64,000 nt of DNA from Escherichia phage vB_EcoM_PTE-Eco05. This document shows positions 8,722-55,385 of this stretch, piece by piece (position 1 is the stretch's first letter; each line of letters starts with the position of its first letter). Under the pieces are notes generated by a model, which was not told the origin of the DNA, did not search any database, and saw only the letters and a program-made list of their open reading frames with translations. The position numbers and the translations under genes are program-made. The stretch lies in sequence record PQ306573.1. One strand, given 5' to 3'.

Positions 8722-9065
8722 CCAAAATGTTGGCTTTAATAGTTGGCTTGGTTTCATTTAACGCTCTTGCTAATACTACATATACTGATGTAACGGAGTA
8801 TACAAACAGAACGGCGTCTGATTATTGTGGTAAAAGTCGAGAGTGTAAAGTAGATTTTTCACAAAAATTGTTATATGCGTATAAAGACGGAGAAAAAGAT
8901 GGGGTGTCTAGTAGGTTCAAGGCGTCTACCTTAATTAAAAGATACTATAAAAAATGGCAAATATTAGAATGCTCGGTGGCGGAACCTAAAGATAAGGCAG
9001 CATGCAATTCTATGGTGGACCGTCTAGTTGACTCTTATACTAGAGGACTTGCAGCAAGTGATTAA
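8718..9065 (+). CDS. small secreted protein
   Basis: N-terminal signal-like MTKMLALIVGLVSFNALA; 115 aa. Confidence 0.5.
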   Translation: MTKMLALIVGLVSFNALANTTYTDVTEYTNRTASDYCGKSRECKVDFSQKLLYAYKDGEKDGVSSRFKASTLIKRYYKKWQILECSVAEPKDKAACNSMVDRLVDSYTRGLAASD

Positions 9066-9522
9066 AAACTATATCAAGGGCGATATTGTCGCCCTGTTTT
9101 CTAAAGGTAATAATATTGCTCACGGGTGTAATTGTTTTCATACAATGGGCGCTGGTGTGGCAGGACAATTAGCAAAGGCTTATCCAAAAATTCTGGAAGC
9201 CGATAAACTTCAAACCGAATTCGGAGACAAGTCTAAACTCGGGACTTATTCGGTTTATGAAAAATATTTTAAGACCCATAAAGCTTATTGCTTTAATCTT
9301 TATACACAGTTTGAGCCGGGACCTAATTTTGAGTACTCTGCTTTAATGAATTGTATAATAGAATTAAATGAATTCGGAAAGAATAAGATAACAAAGCCTG
9401 TAATTTATATGCCAAGAATTGGTGCAGGTATTGGTGGTGGAAACTGGGATGTCATCGAAGAGATTTTAGATACGTATTCCACTAAACTAGAAATTGTGAT
9501 TGTTGATTGGGAACCTAAATGA
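9028..9522 (+). CDS. macro-domain (ADP-ribose-binding/processing) protein
   Basis: GCNCFHTMGAGVAGQ and PRIGAGIGGGNW resemble macro-domain Gly-rich loops; track start is TTG and true start is uncertain. Confidence 0.7.
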   Translation: MTLILEDLQQVIKNYIKGDIVALFSKGNNIAHGCNCFHTMGAGVAGQLAKAYPKILEADKLQTEFGDKSKLGTYSVYEKYFKTHKAYCFNLYTQFEPGPNFEYSALMNCIIELNEFGKNKITKPVIYMPRIGAGIGGGNWDVIEEILDTYSTKLEIVIVDWEPK

Positions 9523-20345: not shown

Positions 20346-20819
20346 ATGCTATTATCAGGCGCAAAATATAAAGAAGAAAAACAAAAATTTTATGATGCAC
20401 AGAATGGTAAGTGTCCTATTTGCCGCCGTGAATTAGACCCTGATGTTCAAGGTAACCATCTTGACCACGACCACGAATTAAACGGGCCAAAAGCCGGTAG
20501 AGTTCGTGGATTACTCTGTAATCTGTGCAATGCAGCAGAAGGCCAAATGAAGCATAAGTTTAATCGTTCCGGACTTAAAGGACGTGATGTCGACTACCTC
20601 GAATGGCTTGAAGCTCTTCTTGCTTATTTGAAACAAGATTATTCTGATAATAATATCCATCCTAATTTTGTTCCAGACAAAACTAAAGAGTTCTCAAGAC
20701 TAGGTAAAGAGGAAATGATGGCTGAGATGCTTCAAAGAGGATTTGAATATAATGAATCTGATACTAAAACACAATTAATAGCTTCATTCAAAAAGCAGCT
20801 TAGAAAGAGTTTAAAATGA
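20346..20819 (+). CDS. 49: endonuclease VII (Holliday junction resolvase)
   Basis: 157 aa near-identical to T4 gp49 (CPICRRELDP...HDHELNGPKAG). Confidence 0.95.
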   Translation: MLLSGAKYKEEKQKFYDAQNGKCPICRRELDPDVQGNHLDHDHELNGPKAGRVRGLLCNLCNAAEGQMKHKFNRSGLKGRDVDYLEWLEALLAYLKQDYSDNNIHPNFVPDKTKEFSRLGKEEMMAEMLQRGFEYNESDTKTQLIASFKKQLRKSLK

Positions 20820-22633
20820 AAATTGAAAAAGAAATTGAAGGACTGATTCATAAAACTAATAAAGACCTTTTAAACGAGAATGCTAATAAAGATTCTCGTG
20901 TTTTTCCAACTCAACGGGACCTTATGGCTGGTATTGTGTCTAAGCACATTGCCAAAAATATGGTCCCGTCTTTTATTATGAATGCGCATGAAAGCGGAAT
21001 CATTCACATGCATGATATTGATTATTCTCCTGCTCTTCCATTTACTAATTGTTGTTTAGTAGATTTAAAAGGAATGCTTGAGAATGGATTTAAATTAGGC
21101 AATGCTCAAATTGAAACGCCTAAATCGATTGGTGTTGCTACTGCAATTATGGCACAAATTACTGCACAAGTTGCTTCACACCAGTATGGCGGAACTACAT
21201 TTGCGAATGTAGATAAAGTACTTTCTCCTTATGTTAAACGCACCTATGCAAAACATATTGAGGATGCAGAAAAATGGCAAATCGCTGATGCGTTGAATTA
21301 TGCTCAATCTAAAACAGAAAAAGACGTATACGATGCATTCCAAGCTTACGAATATGAAGTAAATACTCTCTTTAGTTCAAACGGGCAAACACCTTTTGTA
21401 ACAATTACATTTGGTACAGGAACTGACTGGACTGAACGAATGATTCAGAAAGCAATTCTGAAAAATCGTATTAAAGGTCTTGGTCGTGATGGGATAACTC
21501 CTATTTTTCCTAAACTTGTTATGTTTGTTGAAGAAGGTGTTAATCTTTATAAAGATGATCCGAACTATGATATTAAACAACTTGCGTTAGAATGTGCAAG
21601 CAAAAGAATGTATCCTGACATTATTTCGGTTAAGAATAATAAAGCTATTACCGGTTCTTCAGTTCCTGTTTCTCCGATGGGTTGTCGTAGTTTCTTGAGC
21701 GTATGGAAAGATTCGACTGGTAATGAAATTCTTGATGGACGTAATAATCTTGGTGTTGTAACACTGAATCTTCCTCGCATCGCGTTAGATTCTTATATTG
21801 GAACACAGTTCAATGAACAGAAATTTGTTGAGCTATTTAACGAACGAATGGACCTGTGTTTTGAAGCCTTGATGTGTAGAATTAGTTCTTTAAAGGGTGT
21901 TAAAGCTACTGTTGCTCCTATTCTTTACCAAGAAGGTGCATTCGGTGTTCGTCTTAAACCCGATGACGATATAATTGAGTTATTTAAAAACGGTAGAAGT
22001 TCAGTTTCCCTAGGATACATTGGTATTCACGAATTGAATATTCTTGTCGGTCGTGATATTGGACGAGAAATTTTGACTAAAATGAATGCTCATCTTAAAC
22101 AGTGGACTGAAAGAACTGGATTTGCTTTTAGTTTATATTCTACTCCTGCTGAAAACCTTTGTTATCGCTTCTGTAAACTTGATACAGAAAAATATGGAAG
22201 CGTAAAAGATGTTACCGATAAAGGTTGGTACACTAATAGTTTCCATGTTTCAGTAGAAGAAAATATTACTCCGTTTGAAAAGATTTCTCGTGAAGCACCA
22301 TATCATTTCATTGCGACCGGCGGTCACATTTCTTATGTTGAACTTCCTGATATGAAAAATAACTTAAAGGGCCTTGAGGCTGTATGGGATTATGCTGCAC
22401 AACATTTAGATTATTTTGGTGTTAACATGCCGGTAGATAAATGTTTTACATGTGGAAGTACCCATGAAATGTCTCCTACCGAAAACGGATTTGTTTGTTC
22501 AGTTTGTGGAGAAAGTGATCCTAAAAAGATGAACACAATAAGAAGAACATGCGGATATCTTGGAACTCCTAGCGTTGTTCCATGGAATTTAGGTAAAATG
22601 AAAGAAATGGTAAAACGAGTAAAACATGCATAG
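20816..22633 (+). CDS. nrdD: anaerobic ribonucleoside-triphosphate reductase
   Basis: 605 aa; C-terminal Zn-ribbon and glycyl-radical motif RRTCGYLG; contiguous ORF, no intron. Confidence 0.95.
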   Translation: MKIEKEIEGLIHKTNKDLLNENANKDSRVFPTQRDLMAGIVSKHIAKNMVPSFIMNAHESGIIHMHDIDYSPALPFTNCCLVDLKGMLENGFKLGNAQIETPKSIGVATAIMAQITAQVASHQYGGTTFANVDKVLSPYVKRTYAKHIEDAEKWQIADALNYAQSKTEKDVYDAFQAYEYEVNTLFSSNGQTPFVTITFGTGTDWTERMIQKAILKNRIKGLGRDGITPIFPKLVMFVEEGVNLYKDDPNYDIKQLALECASKRMYPDIISVKNNKAITGSSVPVSPMGCRSFLSVWKDSTGNEILDGRNNLGVVTLNLPRIALDSYIGTQFNEQKFVELFNERMDLCFEALMCRISSLKGVKATVAPILYQEGAFGVRLKPDDDIIELFKNGRSSVSLGYIGIHELNILVGRDIGREILTKMNAHLKQWTERTGFAFSLYSTPAENLCYRFCKLDTEKYGSVKDVTDKGWYTNSFHVSVEENITPFEKISREAPYHFIATGGHISYVELPDMKNNLKGLEAVWDYAAQHLDYFGVNMPVDKCFTCGSTHEMSPTENGFVCSVCGESDPKKMNTIRRTCGYLGTPSVVPWNLGKMKEMVKRVKHA

Positions 22634-23456
22634 GTATTATATAATTTATAAAATAACAAATATAATTAATTCAAAGGAATATATCGGTGCTATGCGCACC
22701 GATAACATAAATGATGGTTATATGGGGTCAGGAACATTGATTCGTGCCGCTTTATTAAAATATGGTAGAAAAAATTTTAATAAAGAAATTTTACATGTTT
22801 TTGATAATGAAAAACAAATGTATGATAAAGAAGCTGAACTTGTAACCGAAGAGTATTGTCTAAAAGAAAATACATATAATATTAAACCTGGTGGAAAAGG
22901 TGGAACTGCCTATGAACAGACACTTGAACATCGCCGTAAAAATAGTTTAGCAAATAAAGGTAAAAAGAGAACAGAAGAAACTAAAATAGCTATTTCACGT
23001 GCTTTAAAGAAATATAAACGTACGCCAGAGCATCAAGCAAATTTAAATAAAGCCGTAAGCATAGCTATGAAGCGAAAAGATGTTAGAAGTAAATTAGCTG
23101 GAGAGCGGTCTGAGAAAGATAAATTATCTATATCAAACGGTGTTAAAAAATATTACAATTCTTTGAGTGAAGAAGAACGCGAACTTCATCGCAAGCGAAT
23201 TATTGAAGGTAAAAAGAATTCTCCCATGTCATTGGAATCTAGACAAAAGCTTTCAAAAGCTTTAAAAGGGCTTCAAGTTGGTTCAAAAAATCCAATGTAT
23301 GGAAAAATTTCTCCAACTAGCAAAACCGTTTCAGTTGACGGTATTAAATATGATTCAATTAAAAAGTGCTCAAATGCCATAAAAGTTTCTAGACATCTTA
23401 TACTAAAACGCTGTAATTCTACTGATGAAGCTTGGAAAAATTGGATATTATTATGA
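22626..23456 (+). mobile_element. free-standing GIY-YIG homing endonuclease gene (seg/mob-like)
   Basis: YIIYKITNIINSKEYIG GIY-YIG motif; basic C-terminal repeats; overlaps nrdD stop and nrdG start. Confidence 0.85.
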
Positions 23457-23923
23457 ATTATGACAGAATATACCCGTGCTGCTTTGTTAATGGTCCTGGA
23501 TGCAGGACAGTTCTTTTCGTTACAGGTTGTTTGCATAAATGCGAAGGGTGTTATAATAAATCAACATGGAATGCTAGAAATGGTGTTCCATTCACTAGTG
23601 AAACACTAGAACAATTGATTGAATGTTTGAATAATGATTATATAGAAGGATTAACTATAACCGGAGGAGACCCTCTCTATCCTGATAACCGAGATGTTAT
23701 TCATCGCATTGCTCAAACAGTAAAAAATCTTTATCCCAATAAAAGCATTTGGATGTGGACAGGATATAAGTTTGAAGATATTAAACAACTAGAAATGCTT
23801 AAATATGTTGATGTTATTATTGATGGGAAGTATGAGAAAAATCTTCCGACTAAAAAGCTGTGGCGAGGATCAGATAATCAGCGACTTTGGTCAAATACCG
23901 ATGGGGTGTGGAAACATGATTAA
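23453..23923 (+). CDS. nrdG: anaerobic RNR activating enzyme (radical SAM)
   Basis: MNYDRIYP...GCLHKCEGCYN close to T4 NrdG. Confidence 0.92.
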   Translation: MNYDRIYPCCFVNGPGCRTVLFVTGCLHKCEGCYNKSTWNARNGVPFTSETLEQLIECLNNDYIEGLTITGGDPLYPDNRDVIHRIAQTVKNLYPNKSIWMWTGYKFEDIKQLEMLKYVDVIIDGKYEKNLPTKKLWRGSDNQRLWSNTDGVWKHD

Positions 23924-37332: not shown

Positions 37333-37968
37333 ATGAAAACTACACCAATCACTATCGCTATTGACGCAATCGTAAAACAAGCTTCATCTCTTGCCACTAT
37401 GGCTAAAGTAATTAGTCAAAACCCTGCTCGGTATAATGCTATTCTTGAAACTCTTCGTCGCCCTGGACTGAGTAATTATGAAAGTCGTGTAATTATTACA
37501 GGTGTTGGTAAGAACGCTAATATCGCAACTAAAGCTTCCGAGACTTTTGCTTCACTAGGTATTCCTAGCATGTATTTGAACACTGGGCATTATTCTCATG
37601 GTGACGCAGGATTTATTGCACCTAATGATGTATTAGTTCACATCAGCCGTTCTGGTAAGACTGAAGAAATGATAGGTGTTGCTAAACATCTTCGTATGAT
37701 TCGTCCTCAGGTTAAACAGATTCTGTTACATTGTAACCCTGACATTCCACAAGAATACGAAGCTCTTTTTGATTATACGTTCTGTACTGGTATCGCGGTA
37801 GAAGTTGACGAGAACTCTTTAGCTCCGACAATGTCTACTACATTGTTGTTAGCGCTTATCGATACGTTCGCTATCAACCTTTCGTCTGAACGTGGATTTA
37901 CCTCTAATGATTTCCTTAAGTTCCATCCAGGCGGTGCACTAGGTGCCATGTTACGAGGCGAACAATGA
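37333..37968 (+). CDS. SIS-domain sugar-phosphate isomerase, KdsD/GutQ-like arabinose-5-phosphate isomerase
   Basis: ITGVGKNANIATKASETFASLGIPS...HGDAGFIAPNDVLVHISRSGKTEE...LAPTMSTTLLLALID...HPGGALG matches API SIS motifs; no CBS domains. Confidence 0.8.
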   Translation: MKTTPITIAIDAIVKQASSLATMAKVISQNPARYNAILETLRRPGLSNYESRVIITGVGKNANIATKASETFASLGIPSMYLNTGHYSHGDAGFIAPNDVLVHISRSGKTEEMIGVAKHLRMIRPQVKQILLHCNPDIPQEYEALFDYTFCTGIAVEVDENSLAPTMSTTLLLALIDTFAINLSSERGFTSNDFLKFHPGGALGAMLRGEQ

Positions 37969-38107
37969 AAGCAATATCAATAGGACTTTTACTATTGATG
38001 CTTGTCATGACTATCTACTGGAGCTTAACGGCTCCAGTAATGATTCCAACACTTGTAATTGGATGGATTATGATTGGACTACAAGCAAAGTATGAATGCT
38101 TTAACTA
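37965..38107 (+). CDS. small hydrophobic membrane peptide (47 aa)
   Basis: ATGA overlap with upstream stop; MKAISIGLLLLMLVMTIYW... Confidence 0.35.
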
Positions 38108-38149
38108 GAATAGTGTACAATACTCCTACTTACCAATGAGGACTTCAAC

Positions 38150-39835
38150 ATGAAAAAAGCTGTTATTCTTGGTGCTGGACTGGCAACTCGTTTGTATCCA
38201 ATAACGCATCATATTCCTAAGGTGCTTGTTAACTATAAACAAGACACTATTCTGAGCAATTTGTATACAATTTATTCTGACCTTGGCGCAGATGAAATTA
38301 TTGTAGTAGTTCATTCAAAATTTGCTGAAACTGTTCGAGCTTATTGTGAGCAAGAAGGGTTCAATGTGACTATTCGTACAGTTGATGAAGCGTATGGTTC
38401 TGCTTATGCTCTTGCTAAATTACACAAAGATTTAGACGGCCATAATGTAATTGTTAACTGGTGTGATATTATTCCCGATTTTGGTTCATGGTCTTGGAAT
38501 GTTAACGCAATCTATGTTAAGGGTGATGAATGTCGGTATAATTTCGATGGTGAAAATATCACTAATGTAGGTGAAACAGGCGGTAATGTTGTAGGAATTT
38601 ATCAGTTCAAAGACTGGGAATTCTATATGGGTTCTACCGATGAGGAAATTCATGAATACTGCAAAGGACGTGATTTCGTAGAATTCCTTTACGGCAGCAC
38701 ATTCAATAAATCAGAGCTTATGAATCTAATTGATTTAGGTGATATGCCTAAACTTGAAAAGGCCCATGAAGTTCGTGAACTGAACCGTAGTTTTAATGCA
38801 GTTGAAATTGGCGAAGAAACTGTAACTAAATTCGCATTAACCGAACAGGGTCGAGCTCTTCAGAAAGATGAGATTTCGTGGTATTTGAAAGTGAAATCAG
38901 ATTCAGTTCCTCAGTTAGTTTCTGTTAATGAAAATAACTTTGAAATGGAACGCATTAAAGGTAAGCCGGCATTTGAATATATTAAATCAAAATCAAGTCT
39001 TGCTCGTCCACAAATTATTGATGCAATTTTAGATGCACTGAAATTCAGCACAGACACTTATTTTGTAAGTCCTGAAACTGTTCGTCGTGATTTCACTAAA
39101 GAATTCTATACGAAAGTTATTGATCGTTGTGAAAGCATTCAACCATTGATTGATTCATTTGGTAAAATCACACATGTGAACTACACTAAGATTGGACGTC
39201 TGAAGCCAATGCTGAAACAAGCTTTAGAACACCTTATTCGTTATCATAACCGTTCTCAGGGACAGTACTCTGTTATTCATGGTGACCCGAACTTCAGTAA
39301 TACTATGATTACTGATAACGGCGAAGTCAAGTTTATCGACCCTCGTGGATATTTTGGCGAAACCAAGATTTACGGGCCAAAATTGTATGATGAAGCTAAA
39401 GTGCTTTACGCTGTTTCAGGTTATGATGAATTCAATGCTAATCCGACCTGGGGACAGTTTACTATTGATGAAACAACTTGTAATGTGACTATTAACATCA
39501 ATCCATTAGTTTACAAATATGGAAAGATGAGTTCGTTTAACGAGTATCATCATTTGGCAGTGGCAATTATCTGGATTGCATTAGGTGGTTATTTCAAGAA
39601 TAATCCACTTAAAGCGGTAGCCGCATATTATAAAGGTATGGAACTTCTGACTAAGCAATTACGTAATATGGGCCGTGTACTTCAAGACGGCTCTATTAGT
39701 TATGACGTAGCAGAACCTGTAACGGCTACTCTGATTACAAAAAATCCTGGTAAATGGGTACTAACTGATAAAGAAACTGGTGTTTCCTATCGTCCAATCG
39801 GTGGCGATATCACTCATCAATGGGAACGAATCTAA
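38150..39835 (+). CDS. bifunctional NDP-sugar pyrophosphorylase / sugar kinase fusion
   Basis: N-terminal AVILGAGLATRLYPITHHIPKVLV nucleotidyltransferase motif; C-terminal IHGDPNFSNTMI and FIDPRGYFG resemble APH/choline-kinase-fold motifs. Confidence 0.75.
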   Translation: MKKAVILGAGLATRLYPITHHIPKVLVNYKQDTILSNLYTIYSDLGADEIIVVVHSKFAETVRAYCEQEGFNVTIRTVDEAYGSAYALAKLHKDLDGHNVIVNWCDIIPDFGSWSWNVNAIYVKGDECRYNFDGENITNVGETGGNVVGIYQFKDWEFYMGSTDEEIHEYCKGRDFVEFLYGSTFNKSELMNLIDLGDMPKLEKAHEVRELNRSFNAVEIGEETVTKFALTEQGRALQKDEISWYLKVKSDSVPQLVSVNENNFEMERIKGKPAFEYIKSKSSLARPQIIDAILDALKFSTDTYFVSPETVRRDFTKEFYTKVIDRCESIQPLIDSFGKITHVNYTKIGRLKPMLKQALEHLIRYHNRSQGQYSVIHGDPNFSNTMITDNGEVKFIDPRGYFGETKIYGPKLYDEAKVLYAVSGYDEFNANPTWGQFTIDETTCNVTININPLVYKYGKMSSFNEYHHLAVAIIWIALGGYFKNNPLKAVAAYYKGMELLTKQLRNMGRVLQDGSISYDVAEPVTATLITKNPGKWVLTDKETGVSYRPIGGDITHQWERI

Positions 39836-40221
39836 TGCACCGTGTAGAAAACATGCTTAATCTTTGTTTTGATGTCGATGATTGTATAACAGAGTGGAAT
39901 AACAATCGTGATTACGTGAACTTCAAACCAGACGTCGAAATGGTGTCTGCCATTAATGCTCTGTATGATGCAGGGCATACCATAACGCTTTACACTGCTC
40001 GCGGTATGAAGTCAGTAGGTCCTGGTCGTATAGCAATTGACATTCTCCCAAGTCTGATTCAGAACTTGGCAAACATTGGCTTGAAGTACCATAATTTGCT
40101 AACACATAAACCAGTATATGATTGGATTATCGACGACAAAGCTATGCGTCCTGACGAATTCAAAGCTCTTATGAATAAAGGCGAATTCGAAACATTTAAA
40201 TCGTATAAACCGAATCTATAA
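39835..40221 (+). CDS. HAD-superfamily phosphatase-like protein
   Basis: FDVDDCIT near N-terminus (HAD motif I-like), later TARG and WIIDD. Confidence 0.55.
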   Translation: MHRVENMLNLCFDVDDCITEWNNNRDYVNFKPDVEMVSAINALYDAGHTITLYTARGMKSVGPGRIAIDILPSLIQNLANIGLKYHNLLTHKPVYDWIIDDKAMRPDEFKALMNKGEFETFKSYKPNL

Positions 40222-40269
40222 TAATTTAAGTAAGACCTGCAAAAAAACCATCGCATCAATTAACGCGAG

Positions 40270-41439
40270 ATGCAAAAAATGAATACTTTTAAAATCGGAA
40301 CGAATTTTGATTTAGCTCTTCTTGATAAAATCGTAGAGCTCAATAAAACTTATCCTAATAGCTTGATAAATGAAGTATACGGCTCTACAAGAGAAATGGC
40401 TTTTGTAGCAGCCAGACCTGATTTTAGGCTTCCTGACGTTGACAAAAAGATGTTAGAAGATTACGTTAAACGTTGTAACGAATTAGGTATTTGCTTTAAC
40501 TATACACTCAACACGATAAATCCTGGTTCAAAAAGAGAACTAGTTGAGTGGAAGAAGAAAGCTATTCAGGATTATGTTCAGTATCTTTGGTCAATAGGCG
40601 TATGGCGTATTACTATCGCTAACCCTGTTGTTATGGAAATTGTTCGTGAAGTCAATAAAGACATTGAGATTGAAGTTTCAACAATTCTACATGTCGATGC
40701 TGTAACTCAAATCAAATACTTGCATGACCAGTATAATATCAAAAAGGTCTGCTGTGGAATTCATAAGAACCGTTCAGTTTCTTTCCTGAAGCGTGCAGCA
40801 GAGTTTTGCAATAAGAACAATATAATATTTGAAGTTCTTGTAAATGAGTTCTGTTCTAATGCTGGTAAAGGGTATACAACACATTGTAGCTATCGTGACT
40901 CTTGCTATATTTTCCATAGTACTGATGTTACAGCTGATGATGCTAAATCCTTAAACGGATATCCTATGCAGCACTGTATTAAAGCTCGTGATACAGACCC
41001 ATTTAACTGGTTGAGAACTCGTTTTGTTCGTCCTCAAGATTTGAAACTTTATAATGATATTGGTATCACTCAATTCAAAGTTTCAGGACGTACAGGTAGC
41101 ACAGACTACATTTTGAAAGTTCTTGAAGCATACGCTTCTGAAAAGTTTGAAGGTAATTTGTTAGAACTGTGGAAGCCTTTAGAGACTATTTTCACTCTTG
41201 AAAACGAAACTGAGTTTTCACATACAGTAAATATTGAAACCTCTTTGTTAGATGGCTTTTTAGAAAAAAGGTGGTTCAGACATCCAGATTTCGATTGTGC
41301 TAATGAAATCTGCGGGACGACGTGTACATATTGTGAAAGATATTATAAACGTCAATTATCTAAAAACGGGTTAGCAGAAAACTCTATATCTATTATTGAT
41401 ATAACTAACTCTGATGACGCTTTGAGGTACCCGGAATGA
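40270..41439 (+). CDS. Cys-rich hypothetical protein of the sugar/modification cluster
   Basis: 389 aa; NEFCSNAGKGYTTHCSYRDSCY and C-terminal CANEICGTTCTYCERYY. Confidence 0.55.
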   Translation: MQKMNTFKIGTNFDLALLDKIVELNKTYPNSLINEVYGSTREMAFVAARPDFRLPDVDKKMLEDYVKRCNELGICFNYTLNTINPGSKRELVEWKKKAIQDYVQYLWSIGVWRITIANPVVMEIVREVNKDIEIEVSTILHVDAVTQIKYLHDQYNIKKVCCGIHKNRSVSFLKRAAEFCNKNNIIFEVLVNEFCSNAGKGYTTHCSYRDSCYIFHSTDVTADDAKSLNGYPMQHCIKARDTDPFNWLRTRFVRPQDLKLYNDIGITQFKVSGRTGSTDYILKVLEAYASEKFEGNLLELWKPLETIFTLENETEFSHTVNIETSLLDGFLEKRWFRHPDFDCANEICGTTCTYCERYYKRQLSKNGLAENSISIIDITNSDDALRYPE

Positions 41440-47458: not shown

Positions 47459-47776
47459 ATGAAAACCATCGATTGTAAAGCAGAATTTAAGATTTTTTAT
47501 CACGGTTCAAGTAGTTCAGCTAACATCGAAAACATGCTTTGTCCTCCTGAAGAAACAGGAGTTCTGTCTGAAACTGGACGTAAGAAAAACTTGGATCGTG
47601 TATTCTTTACTGAAGATATCGGTTTAGCAAAGATTTATGCAGGACGAGCAGCACGCTCTTATGGAGGTGAACCACGTCTCTATCGAGTAATTTCTCCGGT
47701 AGATGTAGTTCAAATGAATGATACTAAAGGTGCTACAGTTTATCACGCTGAATGGGCATTTTGCGAGGAAATATGA
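47459..47776 (+). CDS. hypothetical protein
   Basis: 105-aa ORF. Confidence 0.5.
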   Translation: MKTIDCKAEFKIFYHGSSSSANIENMLCPPEETGVLSETGRKKNLDRVFFTEDIGLAKIYAGRAARSYGGEPRLYRVISPVDVVQMNDTKGATVYHAEWAFCEEI

Positions 47777-49069: not shown

Positions 49070-49720
49070 ATGATTTATTACATGCACAAAAACGCACCAT
49101 TTAAATATGGTAAATTTCCTAATGCACAATGTTATAATATAACGCCGAATGAAAATAATAACGGATACCATATTGGTGTAATTTTTGTAATTGTTAAAGA
49201 TAACGAAATTGTTGCCTGGGCAGATTTTAAAGGTACAACATATGATGTTAATCCTGTGCCTTTCACATATTACAATATAATGGATTTGGCATATGATTAT
49301 AATTGGTTTAATCATGACACGTTGGCTCATATTGAAGGTGTAGGATTTGACATCTCTTATTCTAGCTATTCATTATGTCCTATGAGCCGAGCTCACGGTA
49401 AAGATGTATCATATCTTTCAATTCGGAAACGTGTAAACTTCAAACGCAGTACAGAGTATGTTGGTGGACTCTTTGTTAAAGATAATAAAATAACCCGTAT
49501 TAGTTATCCTTTAAGTGTAGGTCAAAAAGATGTTGATGTTGATTTAGACTTAACTGAAAGTAACATTAATCGTATTGCTTCTGTATATTTTGATATCGAT
49601 GAAAAAATTGTAGTGTGTGGATACGAATTACCACCTGAAGAAAAGGCTGAAACAATTGAAGTCGAATTAGAAATTTCTGTTGATGACCAAATATTTAATG
49701 CATTTATGAATCGAGGTTAA
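49070..49720 (+). CDS. hypothetical protein
   Basis: ATG 49070. Confidence 0.5.
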   Translation: MIYYMHKNAPFKYGKFPNAQCYNITPNENNNGYHIGVIFVIVKDNEIVAWADFKGTTYDVNPVPFTYYNIMDLAYDYNWFNHDTLAHIEGVGFDISYSSYSLCPMSRAHGKDVSYLSIRKRVNFKRSTEYVGGLFVKDNKITRISYPLSVGQKDVDVDLDLTESNINRIASVYFDIDEKIVVCGYELPPEEKAETIEVELEISVDDQIFNAFMNRG

Positions 49721-51751: not shown

Positions 51752-52273
51752 ATGGCGCACTTTAACGAATGTTCACAACTTATTTCTGGTGTTGATAAAG
51801 CAGAAGAAGCTTATTTTAATGCTCTGATTCACGAAGATAAAGACCCACTGCAGGTAATGCTTGATATGCAGAAATCTTTACAGGTTCGTCTGGCAAATGA
51901 CAAGCCTGAACATAACAAACATCCTGATGAATTAGCTACCGCCGGTGATGTTGTTGATTGGCTGCGTAATCAGAAAGATTATATTGATGATGAATTCCGT
52001 GAACTGCTGACTTCACTTGGCGGTATGAGCAATGGTGAAAAAGCTGCCAGCAGTGTATGGAAGCCATGGAAAGCACAACATGCTGAATATCGTAATCGTC
52101 GTATCGATGAACTGTCTCCTGAAGACCAGCTCGAAATTAAATTCGAAATGATTGATATTCTGCACTTCGTTCTGAACATGTTCCAAGGTCTGGGTCTTTC
52201 TGCTGAAGAAATCTTTAAACTGTATTACCTGAAAAACCAACACAACTTTGAACGCCAGGATAATGGTTACTGA
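51752..52273 (+). CDS. 56: dCTP pyrophosphatase (MazG-like)
   Basis: MAHFNEC...LQVMLDMQ...LEIKFEMIDILHFVLNMF close to T4 gp56. Confidence 0.9.
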   Translation: MAHFNECSQLISGVDKAEEAYFNALIHEDKDPLQVMLDMQKSLQVRLANDKPEHNKHPDELATAGDVVDWLRNQKDYIDDEFRELLTSLGGMSNGEKAASSVWKPWKAQHAEYRNRRIDELSPEDQLEIKFEMIDILHFVLNMFQGLGLSAEEIFKLYYLKNQHNFERQDNGY

Positions 52274-52279
52274 TTAAGT

Positions 52280-52287
52280 TATAAATA
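52280..52287 (+). promoter_or_regulatory. late promoter TATAAATA upstream of soc
   Basis: exact TATAAATA about 32 nt upstream of the soc ATG. Confidence 0.5.
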
Positions 52288-52318
52288 CACCTGTAATTAA
52301 ACAACAAAGGAGTTAATT

Positions 52319-52555
52319 ATGGGTGGTTATGTAAACATCAAAACCTTTACGCGTCCTGCTGGTGAAGGTAAAGAAGTTAAAGGTATGGAAGTTTCTGTGC
52401 CGTTTGAGATTTATTCAAACGAACATCGGATTGCAGATTCTCATTACCAAATCTTTCCGTCAGAAAAGGCAGCTTATTCTGATGTCGTTTCTGATGCAGC
52501 AACTTGGAAAACTAAGAACGCTGCAATGTTTACCCCTACGCCAGTAAGTGGTTAA
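52319..52555 (+). CDS. soc: small outer capsid protein
   Basis: GYVNIKTF...HYQIFPSEKAAYS matches T4 Soc. Confidence 0.85.
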   Translation: MGGYVNIKTFTRPAGEGKEVKGMEVSVPFEIYSNEHRIADSHYQIFPSEKAAYSDVVSDAATWKTKNAAMFTPTPVSG

Positions 52556-53276: not shown

Positions 53277-53740
53277 TGGATGCTATGTTATTTAAAATGT
53301 ATTTGCTTGAAGCCAAGTCGTTTAAACATATACCAGTAGAAGATAAGACTCCACTAGAAATAGCTATTCTCATTAACAAAAGTCTAAATAATCCGCAATA
53401 TATCGTAGAAGAATTCTGCAAATTGCAGATTCCTAAAGGTTACAAAATTCGTGTAGAGCGAGTTGGAGCTATTACTCGTTCTAAAAATTCTCCGTTTAGT
53501 CTTGAAGAAGGCATAAAGGACTTAGGTTATGAATCTACGGAAAATGCCGTTTATGTGAATCCTGAAAAGCGTTTAGACTTGTTTGAAAAGCGAGACCACA
53601 AGTATTTTGCCAAAAAATACTTTATTACATCATTAGCAGATTTAATCCATTTGCAACGAGCTATTTGGAAATTTTTTAAGACAAAAGGTGTAGCGATAGA
53701 AACATTCTCCGAGCAGCCTAGTTTTTATTTAGGTGAATAA
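53276..53740 (+). CDS. hypothetical protein
   Basis: 154-aa ORF. Confidence 0.5.
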   Translation: MDAMLFKMYLLEAKSFKHIPVEDKTPLEIAILINKSLNNPQYIVEEFCKLQIPKGYKIRVERVGAITRSKNSPFSLEEGIKDLGYESTENAVYVNPEKRLDLFEKRDHKYFAKKYFITSLADLIHLQRAIWKFFKTKGVAIETFSEQPSFYLGE

Positions 53741-53921
53741 TATGGACCTTATGAGTATGTTTGACGAGCCTGAAGTTGAGGCTCCTAAAGTTCATCGTAG
53801 TGAACTTGTTGATGAACTAGATAGTATTATACAACGACACGGCTTTAGTTTACCTGTTGAAGCCCTGAAAGACCTTGCCTCTTATTATGACGACCCTCCA
53901 CCATGGAGTCCTTGGAAATGA
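53733..53921 (+). CDS. hypothetical acidic protein
   Basis: 62-aa ORF. Confidence 0.4.
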   Translation: MNNMDLMSMFDEPEVEAPKVHRSELVDELDSIIQRHGFSLPVEALKDLASYYDDPPPWSPWK

Positions 53922-54137
53922 AAGAGAAATTTAAAGAGAAATTCTTACTAGAAATCAAGGAAAAAGACTTTGAGACATGGTATCGAATGGTGAAAGGGTT
54001 GACATTGCTTTTTAAAGCATCGTTATTCATGTTAGAACAACCTGGCCCTGATGGTCCTTTAGTAGGAAAGCTTAAAAAGTAGTTTACATTCCCTCCTCTC
54101 GTGTTATGATAGGCTTATCTTTAAATGGAGGTCTATC

Positions 54138-54719
54138 ATGATATGTCAATCTGAACTTCAAGAACGCGAATATCTCGCAGCACTAATTGATGATAAATTC
54201 ACTAAACAAGAACAAAACATTCTCTGGGCTTGCACCGATTCTAAGGAAGACCCGGATTTCCACTATGAATTAGACCATCTTGTTCGTAAGCATATGACTT
54301 CTACAGTACCAGTAGAACTCTACCGCGGTGTAACTCCAGAAGAAGTAGAACGTCTTTCACTTCTTTCTGTTGGATGCCATTGGTCTCCTGGACGAGTAAC
54401 ATCGTTCACAACTGATTTCAGTACAGCTCGTCAATTCTCTGGGAGTTGGGAATATCAGACGTATACTATTCTTAGTCTCAGGAATGCTCCATTCATTTTT
54501 GATTACTACCAAAACATGGTTAACATTGTACTCGCCGGAAAGAACCCTAAGCATGTTATAGAAGAAAAGCGTGTTGACGTCCTAGATATGATTGAATCTG
54601 AACAAGAGTACATGGTCTCAGGTATCTCTAGATTTGAGATTGTGGAAATTGAAGACTTAGAATATGACCCTTTATCTCGATTATACAAAATCATTCATTT
54701 GAAAATGTTGAATTTTTAG
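54138..54719 (+). CDS. ADP-ribosyltransferase, ModA/ModB family (paralogue 1)
   Basis: R-S-E type motifs: LYRG, SFTTDFSTA, EQEYMV; tandem paralogue follows. Confidence 0.75.
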   Translation: MICQSELQEREYLAALIDDKFTKQEQNILWACTDSKEDPDFHYELDHLVRKHMTSTVPVELYRGVTPEEVERLSLLSVGCHWSPGRVTSFTTDFSTARQFSGSWEYQTYTILSLRNAPFIFDYYQNMVNIVLAGKNPKHVIEEKRVDVLDMIESEQEYMVSGISRFEIVEIEDLEYDPLSRLYKIIHLKMLNF

Positions 54720-54776
54720 TGTACAAACTCTTCCGATGATGATACTATAGACCTATCAACCAGAGGAGAAACCAAA

Positions 54777-55385
54777 ATGTTTATGCCGTATAACGAGTGT
54801 GAAATTGAAGAAATGGTTCGTCGTGCTCAAAACCCCGAATATCAAGATGTATTGCAGTACGAAATTGATAGTCAATTCAACGATAATGAACAAAGCATCC
54901 TTTGGCAGTGTATGGAAAACAAGCCAGACTGTATTCAACAGGAGTTAAGTTCAATCGTTCGTAGAAATTGGACGTCTTCTGTTCCTGAGACAATGTATCG
55001 TGGAATCTCTAAGAAAACTATGGCCACACTCGATGATAAAGGCATTGGTAGTATTATTAAATTTGACAGAGTAATGAGCTTCAGCCCAGTGTTCGGTGTA
55101 GCACGTAACTTTGCTTCATATAATTTTTACGGAACATTTAATATGTTCTGCATCAAAGATGCGCCATTTGCTTTCAACTTCCGTGAACATATGCTTAACA
55201 TGATTCTGGCTGCGCCATCTTGTGAGTTCAATGGAGCTTTCCCTGAAGCGACAAGACGGTCTAATGCTAGACTTATATCTGACGAATGTGAATTTATGCT
55301 CCCTATAGGGACTACACTGCGTGTAGATTCTATTATTCAAGATGGACGTTATACAATCTGGAATCTGTCTATTGTCAGTTACTGA
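54777..55385 (+). CDS. ADP-ribosyltransferase, ModA/ModB family (paralogue 2)
   Basis: MYRG, SFSPVFGVA, ECEFM. Confidence 0.75.
   Translation: MFMPYNECEIEEMVRRAQNPEYQDVLQYEIDSQFNDNEQSILWQCMENKPDCIQQELSSIVRRNWTSSVPETMYRGISKKTMATLDDKGIGSIIKFDRVMSFSPVFGVARNFASYNFYGTFNMFCIKDAPFAFNFREHMLNMILAAPSCEFNGAFPEATRRSNARLISDECEFMLPIGTTLRVDSIIQDGRYTIWNLSIVSY

Follow-up and report, generated by a model that had tools for sequence, protein, structure and literature searches.

Two adjacent plus-strand open reading frames (ORFs) at positions 54138-55385 of the window (the whole stretch of DNA that was analysed, 64,000 nucleotides from Escherichia phage vB_EcoM_PTE-Eco05, record PQ306573.1) are, by analogy with phage T4, very probably the modB and modA genes of a Mosigvirus, encoding NAD+-dependent, arginine-specific mono-ADP-ribosyltransferases of the R-S-ExE type that would alter host transcription and translation. 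A preliminary description had proposed that the pair represents tandem ModA/ModB-like mono-ADP-ribosyltransferases of the R-S-E class, and this proposal is supported by homology to T4 ModB and ModA, by synteny, by conservation of the catalytic residues and by the predicted fold. The region extends exactly from the ATG of the 193-aa ORF1 to the stop codon of the 202-aa ORF2. ORF1 (54138-54719), the predicted ModB orthologue, has an ATG start preceded by GGAGG 6 nt upstream, while ORF2 (54777-55385), a putative ModA-clade paralogue in the modA position, has an ATG start preceded by GGAG 8 nt upstream; in both cases the Shine-Dalgarno spacing is normal. The two genes are separated by an intergenic gap of 57 nt, whereas modB and modA of T4 overlap, with no gap.

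In BLASTP comparisons ORF1 exhibited 37% identity to T4 ModB (E=7e-28) and 26% identity to T4 ModA (E=6e-10), and ORF2 exhibited 30% identity to ModB (E=1e-32, 103 bits) and 31% identity to ModA (E=3e-21, 74 bits). The two proteins are also paralogues of each other, with 33% identity over 159 aa (E=1e-26), and both match PHROG 832, 'RNA polymerase ADP-ribosylase' (1.1e-37 for ORF1 and 1e-37 for ORF2), a similarity well above what chance would produce. Searched with a profile, a collection of 5.8 billion proteins yielded 33 clusters, all of them with the Pfam family PF26816 and many named ADP-ribosylase or ModB; the source names of the homologues include 'NAD--protein ADP-ribosyltransferase modB'. 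Neither ORF1 nor ORF2 was matched in NCBIfam or in Pfam-A, of which the copy searched did not contain PF26816. When the family profile was run against the six-frame translation of the window, ORF1 and ORF2 scored 264 and 284 bits, values that are not independent of the profile, as both sequences are in its alignment. The same family HMM, applied to the six-frame pieces, found no third Mod/Alt-like gene in the window and nothing else below E=0.18. The significant full-length similarity to ModA and ModB thus places ORF1 and ORF2, as judged from sequence, in the T4 Mod family.

The pair as such is nothing unusual in a T4-like E. coli phage, being both known and annotated already. The window is a segment of a T4-like Mosigvirus genome, with about 98% DNA identity to phages AV111 and moskry, and the Mod locus itself is 97-98% identical to the DNA of over 100 Mosigvirus phages (Straboviridae, Tevenvirinae) that infect Escherichia and Shigella, AV111 and moskry among them. 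A relative of ORF1 is carried by about 990 GenBank phage records, with identity up to 98.4% in tblastn searches of other phage records, and the closest database proteins are 95% identical to ORF1 (P0004, a 'ribosyltransferase' in phage AV112) and 96% identical to ORF2 (P0001). Over 100 phages in GenBank have near-identical proteins that already bear an ADP-ribosylase annotation, and the labels used for relatives comprise 'ADP-ribosylase', 'ribosyltransferase', 'NAD--protein ADP-ribosyltransferase' and 'ModA or ModB ribosyltransferase'. The ADP-ribosylases of other Mosigvirus phages (moskry_38/moskry_37, AV111, AV112, JK45) are the same genes, with only strain-level substitutions.

The genomic context agrees with the family assignment. 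On the plus strand the gene order is gp56, soc, mrh.2-like, mrh, modA.2-like, modA.4-like, ORF1, ORF2, srd, dda.1, dda and dexA, which, in a comparison that also included moskry, is the same as the transcription order in T4 (NC_000866), with modB before modA. ORF1 and ORF2 thus occupy the T4 modB-modA site between mrh and srd/dda, as is expected of members of the Mod family. A Rfam search of the whole window gave no RNA family match, and therefore no hidden structured RNA at the Mod locus. Other details of this neighbourhood deserve mention in their own right. At 52273-52319, soc begins only 45 nt after gene 56, and the soc.2 and soc.1 genes of moskry (L002 1041-1428) are absent. The ORF at 53733-53921 (+ strand, 62 aa) encodes a homolog of T4 ModA.2 with 36% identity; in many GenBank records its relatives are described as 'molybdenum ABC transporter, periplasmic molybdenum-binding protein', which is evidently an annotation error propagated from the gene name modA. 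Similar name-driven labels are found in the T4 RefSeq record, where dexA.2 is called a 'dextranase' and mobD.4 a molybdopterin biosynthesis protein.

ORF1 and ORF2 would probably be expressed early in infection, from early promoters of the sigma-70 type. A site resembling sigma-70 or T4 early promoters (TTTACA, a 16-nt spacer and TATGAT, with 10 of 12 matches and an extended -10 TG) is located at 54083-54110 on the plus strand, and a weak promoter-like element (TGTACA, 17 nt, TACTAT; 8 of 12 matches, below the scan threshold and recognized by eye) lies on the same strand in the gap between the two ORFs, at 54720-54748. The consensus scan identified a promoter-like site upstream of srd as well. 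These sites are consensus matches only, and such matches are no more common in the region than in shuffled controls; because of this lack of enrichment, the promoter assignments are tentative.

According to the literature, T4 ModA and ModB bear the R-S-EXE motif of arginine-specific ADP-ribosyltransferases, and the R73A/G74A substitution in ModB abolishes both ADP-ribosylation and RNAylation (PMC10468400, from which the numbering of catalytic residues was taken); R63 and G64 of ORF1 align with R73 and G74 of ModB. All motif strings quoted in the preliminary description are present in the translations, namely ELYRGVT, TSFTTDFSTAR and SEQEYMV in ORF1 and TMYRGIS, MSFSPVFGVAR and DECEFML in ORF2. 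The constellation Arg / Ser-x-Ser / Glu-x-Glu that it ascribed to both proteins needs one correction: the Arg and the Glu-x-Glu are found in both and the middle motif of ORF2 is indeed Ser-Phe-Ser, but that of ORF1 is Ser-Phe-Thr, as in T4 ModB. The predicted catalytic codons of ORF1 are those of R63 (54324-54326), S89 (54402-54404), E155 (54600-54602) and E157 (54606-54608), and those of ORF2 are the codons of R75 (54999-55001), S101 (55077-55079), E170 (55284-55286) and E172 (55290-55292), all on the plus strand.

An alignment with T4 ModA and ModB and the 33 homologues was inspected for substitution or absence of the catalytic Arg and Glu, which would have spoken against the proposed activity, and the residues were found to be retained. 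Among the 35 aligned sequences, R63-G64 and S89 in ORF1 numbering (R75-G76 and S101 in ORF2) are invariant, and E155/E157 (E170/E172 in ORF2) are missing from only one entry, a truncated protein of 157 aa. No full-length member deviates at the R, G, S and ExE positions, even though identity over the whole proteins drops to 21-30%; the family is otherwise 21-47% identical, and R, S and ExE form its most conserved columns. With Arg, Ser-x-Ser/Thr and Glu-x-Glu at the aligned positions, ORF1 and ORF2 have the residues that define the R-S-E class (cholera-toxin-like or C3-VIP2-like), as far as the alignment indicates.

The predicted structures lead to the same class. AlphaFold2 models were built from the 35-sequence alignments, with pLDDT of 88.8 and pTM of 0.84 for ORF1 and pLDDT of 94.2 and pTM of 0.88 for ORF2. 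Both models comprise a helical bundle at the N-terminus followed by a β-rich core, in which the Arg terminates one strand, the Ser is carried by the following core strand, ahead of a helix, and the ExE stands at the opening of a later strand, positions consistent with those in the R-S-E class. Foldseek comparison with the PDB yielded 87 matches for ORF1 and 94 for ORF2 at E<=0.001, and the best 50 of the 87, like the best 50 of the 94, are all R-S-E ADP-ribosyltransferases. The enzymes among the matches listed include CDTa, iota toxin Ia, Certhrax, HopU1, C3 exoenzymes, C3larvin, Tre1, XopAI, Vis, VIP2, SpvB and ExoT; the matches listed have a Foldseek probability of 1.00 and E-values around 1e-5, with moderate TM-scores of 0.35-0.57. 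An ADP-ribosyltransferase fold is thus predicted by the models for both proteins. Sequence-based searches of the PDB detected no solved structure of the Mod family: single-sequence searches returned nothing or non-significant, unrelated matches (nucleophosmin, Cas9; E>=0.012), and with the family profile the ExE/β5 segment was aligned to those of XopAI and Vis at a sub-threshold level only (E 0.05-0.8). With the R-S-E toxins (C3, iota Ia/CDTa/VIP2, Certhrax, HopU1, XopAI, Vis and Tre1) the phage proteins share the predicted fold and the arrangement of R, S-x-S/T and E-x-E, but only 8-18% sequence identity. In contrast to these toxins, which are exported, the phage Mod proteins have no domain for secretion or translocation and work within the cell that the phage has infected.

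The retention of both the residues and the fold bears on the idea that one of the paralogues is an inactive pseudo-enzyme that merely binds a host protein. A degenerate copy is frequent among tandem paralogues, and ModA-type genes are dispensable in T4, which may be counted in favour of this idea. Nonetheless, R, S and ExE are all kept by ORF1 as well as by ORF2, and both models are confident ADP-ribosyltransferase folds, so that we regard a pseudo-enzyme as extremely improbable and continue to treat both proteins as predicted enzymes.

The assignment of the individual genes to modB and modA is not equally straightforward for the two. In a neighbour-joining (NJ) tree of the homologues with T4 ModA and ModB, the family splits into two clades, ORF1 grouping with T4 ModB and ORF2 with T4 ModA. 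Together with its identity of 37% to ModB vs 26% to ModA, this placement makes ORF1 clearly the ModB orthologue by sequence comparison. It resembles T4 ModB (NP_049636, 207 aa), whose targets for ADP-ribosylation and RNAylation include ribosomal protein S1 and L2, in genomic position, in size, in the R-G, S-F-T and E-Q-E motifs and in its clade, and differs in length, lacking 14 aa that fall mostly in the N-terminus and in the loop preceding ExE. ORF2 resembles T4 ModA (NP_049635, 200 aa), which ADP-ribosylates Arg265 of both RNA polymerase α subunits, in its site beside srd, in its similar size, in the R-S-ExE motif and in its clade; the ORF2 group was joined with T4 ModA in 155 of 200 bootstraps (78%) of this simple NJ tree, in which a long branch leads to the T4 ModA group. 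The motifs of the two proteins differ, with YRGIS, SFS and ECE in ORF2 vs WRGVP, SAS and EQE in T4 ModA.

This leaves room for an alternative in which the ModA orthology of ORF2 is only apparent and the protein is a second enzyme of the ModB type, which arose by an independent duplication or retained an ancestral ModB-like state while T4 ModA diverged separately. Its targets would then be like the translation proteins of ModB, possibly with RNAylation, rather than RNA polymerase α. In agreement with this alternative, the BLASTP score of ORF2 is higher to T4 ModB than to T4 ModA (103 vs 74 bits), its motifs YRGIS and RVMSFS are nearer to those of ModB (YRGIS, RVDSFT) than to those of T4 ModA (WRGVP, KVVSAS), and the T4 ModA group has the long branch. 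However, ORF2 adjoins srd, which is the modA position, its group was united with T4 ModA in 155 of 200 bootstraps, and a faster evolution of T4 ModA alone would also leave ORF2 more similar to ModB. We consider a second ModB-type enzyme rather unlikely, and take ORF2 as the putative positional and, with moderate support (155/200), also phylogenetic counterpart of ModA, which is more ModB-like than T4 ModA is.

If ORF1 and ORF2 are the modB and modA products, their mode of action may be outlined from the T4 enzymes. NAD+ would be bound by the Arg of strand β1 and the Ser of β2, and the Glu-x-Glu before β5 would catalyse the attachment of ADP-ribose to the side chains of arginines in host proteins. 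As judged from orthology, the predicted substrate of ORF2 is Arg265 in the two α subunits of RNA polymerase, and the predicted substrates of ORF1 are the translation proteins S1, L2, EF-Tu and trigger factor. ORF1 might also use NAD-capped RNA and attach RNA chains to its targets ('RNAylation'), as T4 ModB does; why only ModB RNAylates is not understood (Nature 2023, PMC10468400). The two enzymes would jointly help to turn host transcription and translation to the phage, with a contribution to the evasion of host defence as a further possibility.

The preliminary description also pointed to a macro-domain gene and suggested that the phage encodes both the writers and a potential reader or eraser of ADP-ribosylation. 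The macro-domain gene is real: the ORF at 9028-9522 (+ strand), with a probable GTG start at 9058 that overlaps the stop codon of the vs-like gene, matches Pfam Macro with 28.2 bits vs a cut-off of 22. Its pairing with the Mod genes is not backed by the data, as it lies 45 kb away from them and encodes the orthologue of T4 Tk.4 (84% identity), with vs and tk as neighbours, as in T4, which thus already carries the same combination of Mod and macro-domain genes. Tk.4 has been equated with AdfM, an anti-DarTG2 factor for which the removal of ADP-ribose from DNA is proposed (2025 preprint, 10.1101/2025.11.20.689424). Homologues of the macro-domain protein are present in about 2800 phage records vs about 990 with Mod relatives, and they include Pseudomonas, Cellulophaga and coliphage/Salmonella-phage groups of ~90-150 kb that are absent from the organism tally for Mod, a comparison made only at the level of such tallies. 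The best NCBIfam match of the protein is the DNA ADP-ribosyl glycohydrolase DarG, at 31.6 bits, far under the curated cut-off of 250.

That this protein (~9058-9522) serves as a dedicated eraser or reader of the marks made by ORF1 and ORF2 appears very improbable to us. A macro domain is present in the window, and the solved relatives of the protein include ADP-ribose-1''-phosphatases and hydrolases of the OARD1/TARG1 type, but the distance of 45 kb, the wider spread of the homologues, the DarG match and the report on the T4 orthologue as AdfM all stand against such a role. In the known solved examples, ADP-ribose is removed from arginine by enzymes of the ARH/DraG type and not by macro domains. 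A Mod and macro-domain writer/eraser module was therefore rejected as the leading reading, because of the distance, the orthology to Tk.4, the AdfM report and the spread of homologues, and on the same grounds (45 kb, 84% identity to Tk.4, ~2800 records, AdfM) the macro-domain protein is better read, by analogy with T4, as a predicted counter-defence against host DNA ADP-ribosylation. Since AdfA, anti-DarT factor A, also appears to be encoded in the window (49070-49720, + strand; 216 aa, a full-length match to PF23813 with E=5e-119), the phage has, with the AdfM-like macro-domain protein, two predicted counter-measures against DNA ADP-ribosylation of the DarT type.

Several other plus-strand features were recorded in the window. 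The product of the ORF at 2644-3102 matches Pfam NUDIX (E=2.5e-16) and is a NUDIX hydrolase that may be an NAD- or ADP-ribose-related enzyme; T4 has a comparable NUDIX gene, nudE. At 22626-23456 a 276-aa homing-endonuclease ORF (PHROG 314, E=8e-58), with a GIY-YIG-like N-terminus, is located between the nrdD-like (20816-22633) and nrdG-like (23453-23923) genes for anaerobic ribonucleotide reductase; these two genes abut directly in moskry, here the GC content dips to 0.333 at the insert, and the insert looks like a presence/absence polymorphism of a mobile element. The cluster at 37333-41439 adjoins the DNA polymerase gene, where T4 is without comparable genes; the moskry labels for its members are arabinose-5-phosphate isomerase, GlmU-like bifunctional protein, 'capsule biosynthesis protein' and peptidase, and the cluster may represent a sugar-nucleotide pathway for DNA hypermodification. 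Arabinosyl-hydroxymethylcytosine has been reported for RB69-like phages. Finally, a conserved 105-aa protein encoded at 47459-47776 (PHROG 2110, E=3e-60), which contains the string 'FYHGSS' and gave no match in Pfam and NCBIfam, adjoins a dmd antitoxin-like gene.

The Mod proteins diverge much faster than the products of the neighbouring genes: ORF1 and ORF2 are 30-37% identical to their T4 counterparts, vs 68-79% for Dda, Dda.1, Srd and gp56. Because of this difference, the targets of the enzymes may have shifted, and since, in addition, ORF2 is nearer to ModB than to ModA, an altered division of labour is conceivable, for instance with both enzymes directed at translation proteins or capable of RNAylation, or with one of them specialised for the neutralisation of a host defence system such as Mokosh, instead of a modification of RNA polymerase α. 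We put forward such a division of labour, unlike that of T4, as a tentative suggestion that is on the whole unlikely.

The fast divergence is also compatible with a role in an arms race, which for this phage is speculation. It is common in arms-race genes for divergence to be so far above that of the neighbours, and this would fit an alternative in which one or both enzymes have been selected mainly for counter-defence, i.e. the inactivation or evasion of host immune or toxin-antitoxin proteins such as Mokosh type I or MazF. In T4, Alt has been found to be required for evasion of Mokosh type I, and in the Mokosh screen of the same report a figure legend marks out the phage Bas37 orthologue of ModA (2025 preprint, 10.1101/2025.11.20.689424). 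This evidence, however, is at the preprint level and comes from phages of the genus Tequatrovirus, not from the genus of the phage studied here; no defence target can be read from the sequence, and counter-defence and the classical role are not mutually exclusive. As the principal role, counter-defence is therefore possible but doubtful, and we retain the reading of ORF1 and ORF2 as ModB and ModA enzymes that would act on host transcription and translation.

As the expected modB and modA orthologues of a T4-like phage, the two genes have little significance beyond their correct annotation. With a fixed catalytic core and about one-third identity in the rest of the sequence, ORF1 and ORF2 could nevertheless be used as natural variants for the study of target choice and RNAylation by the Mod enzymes.
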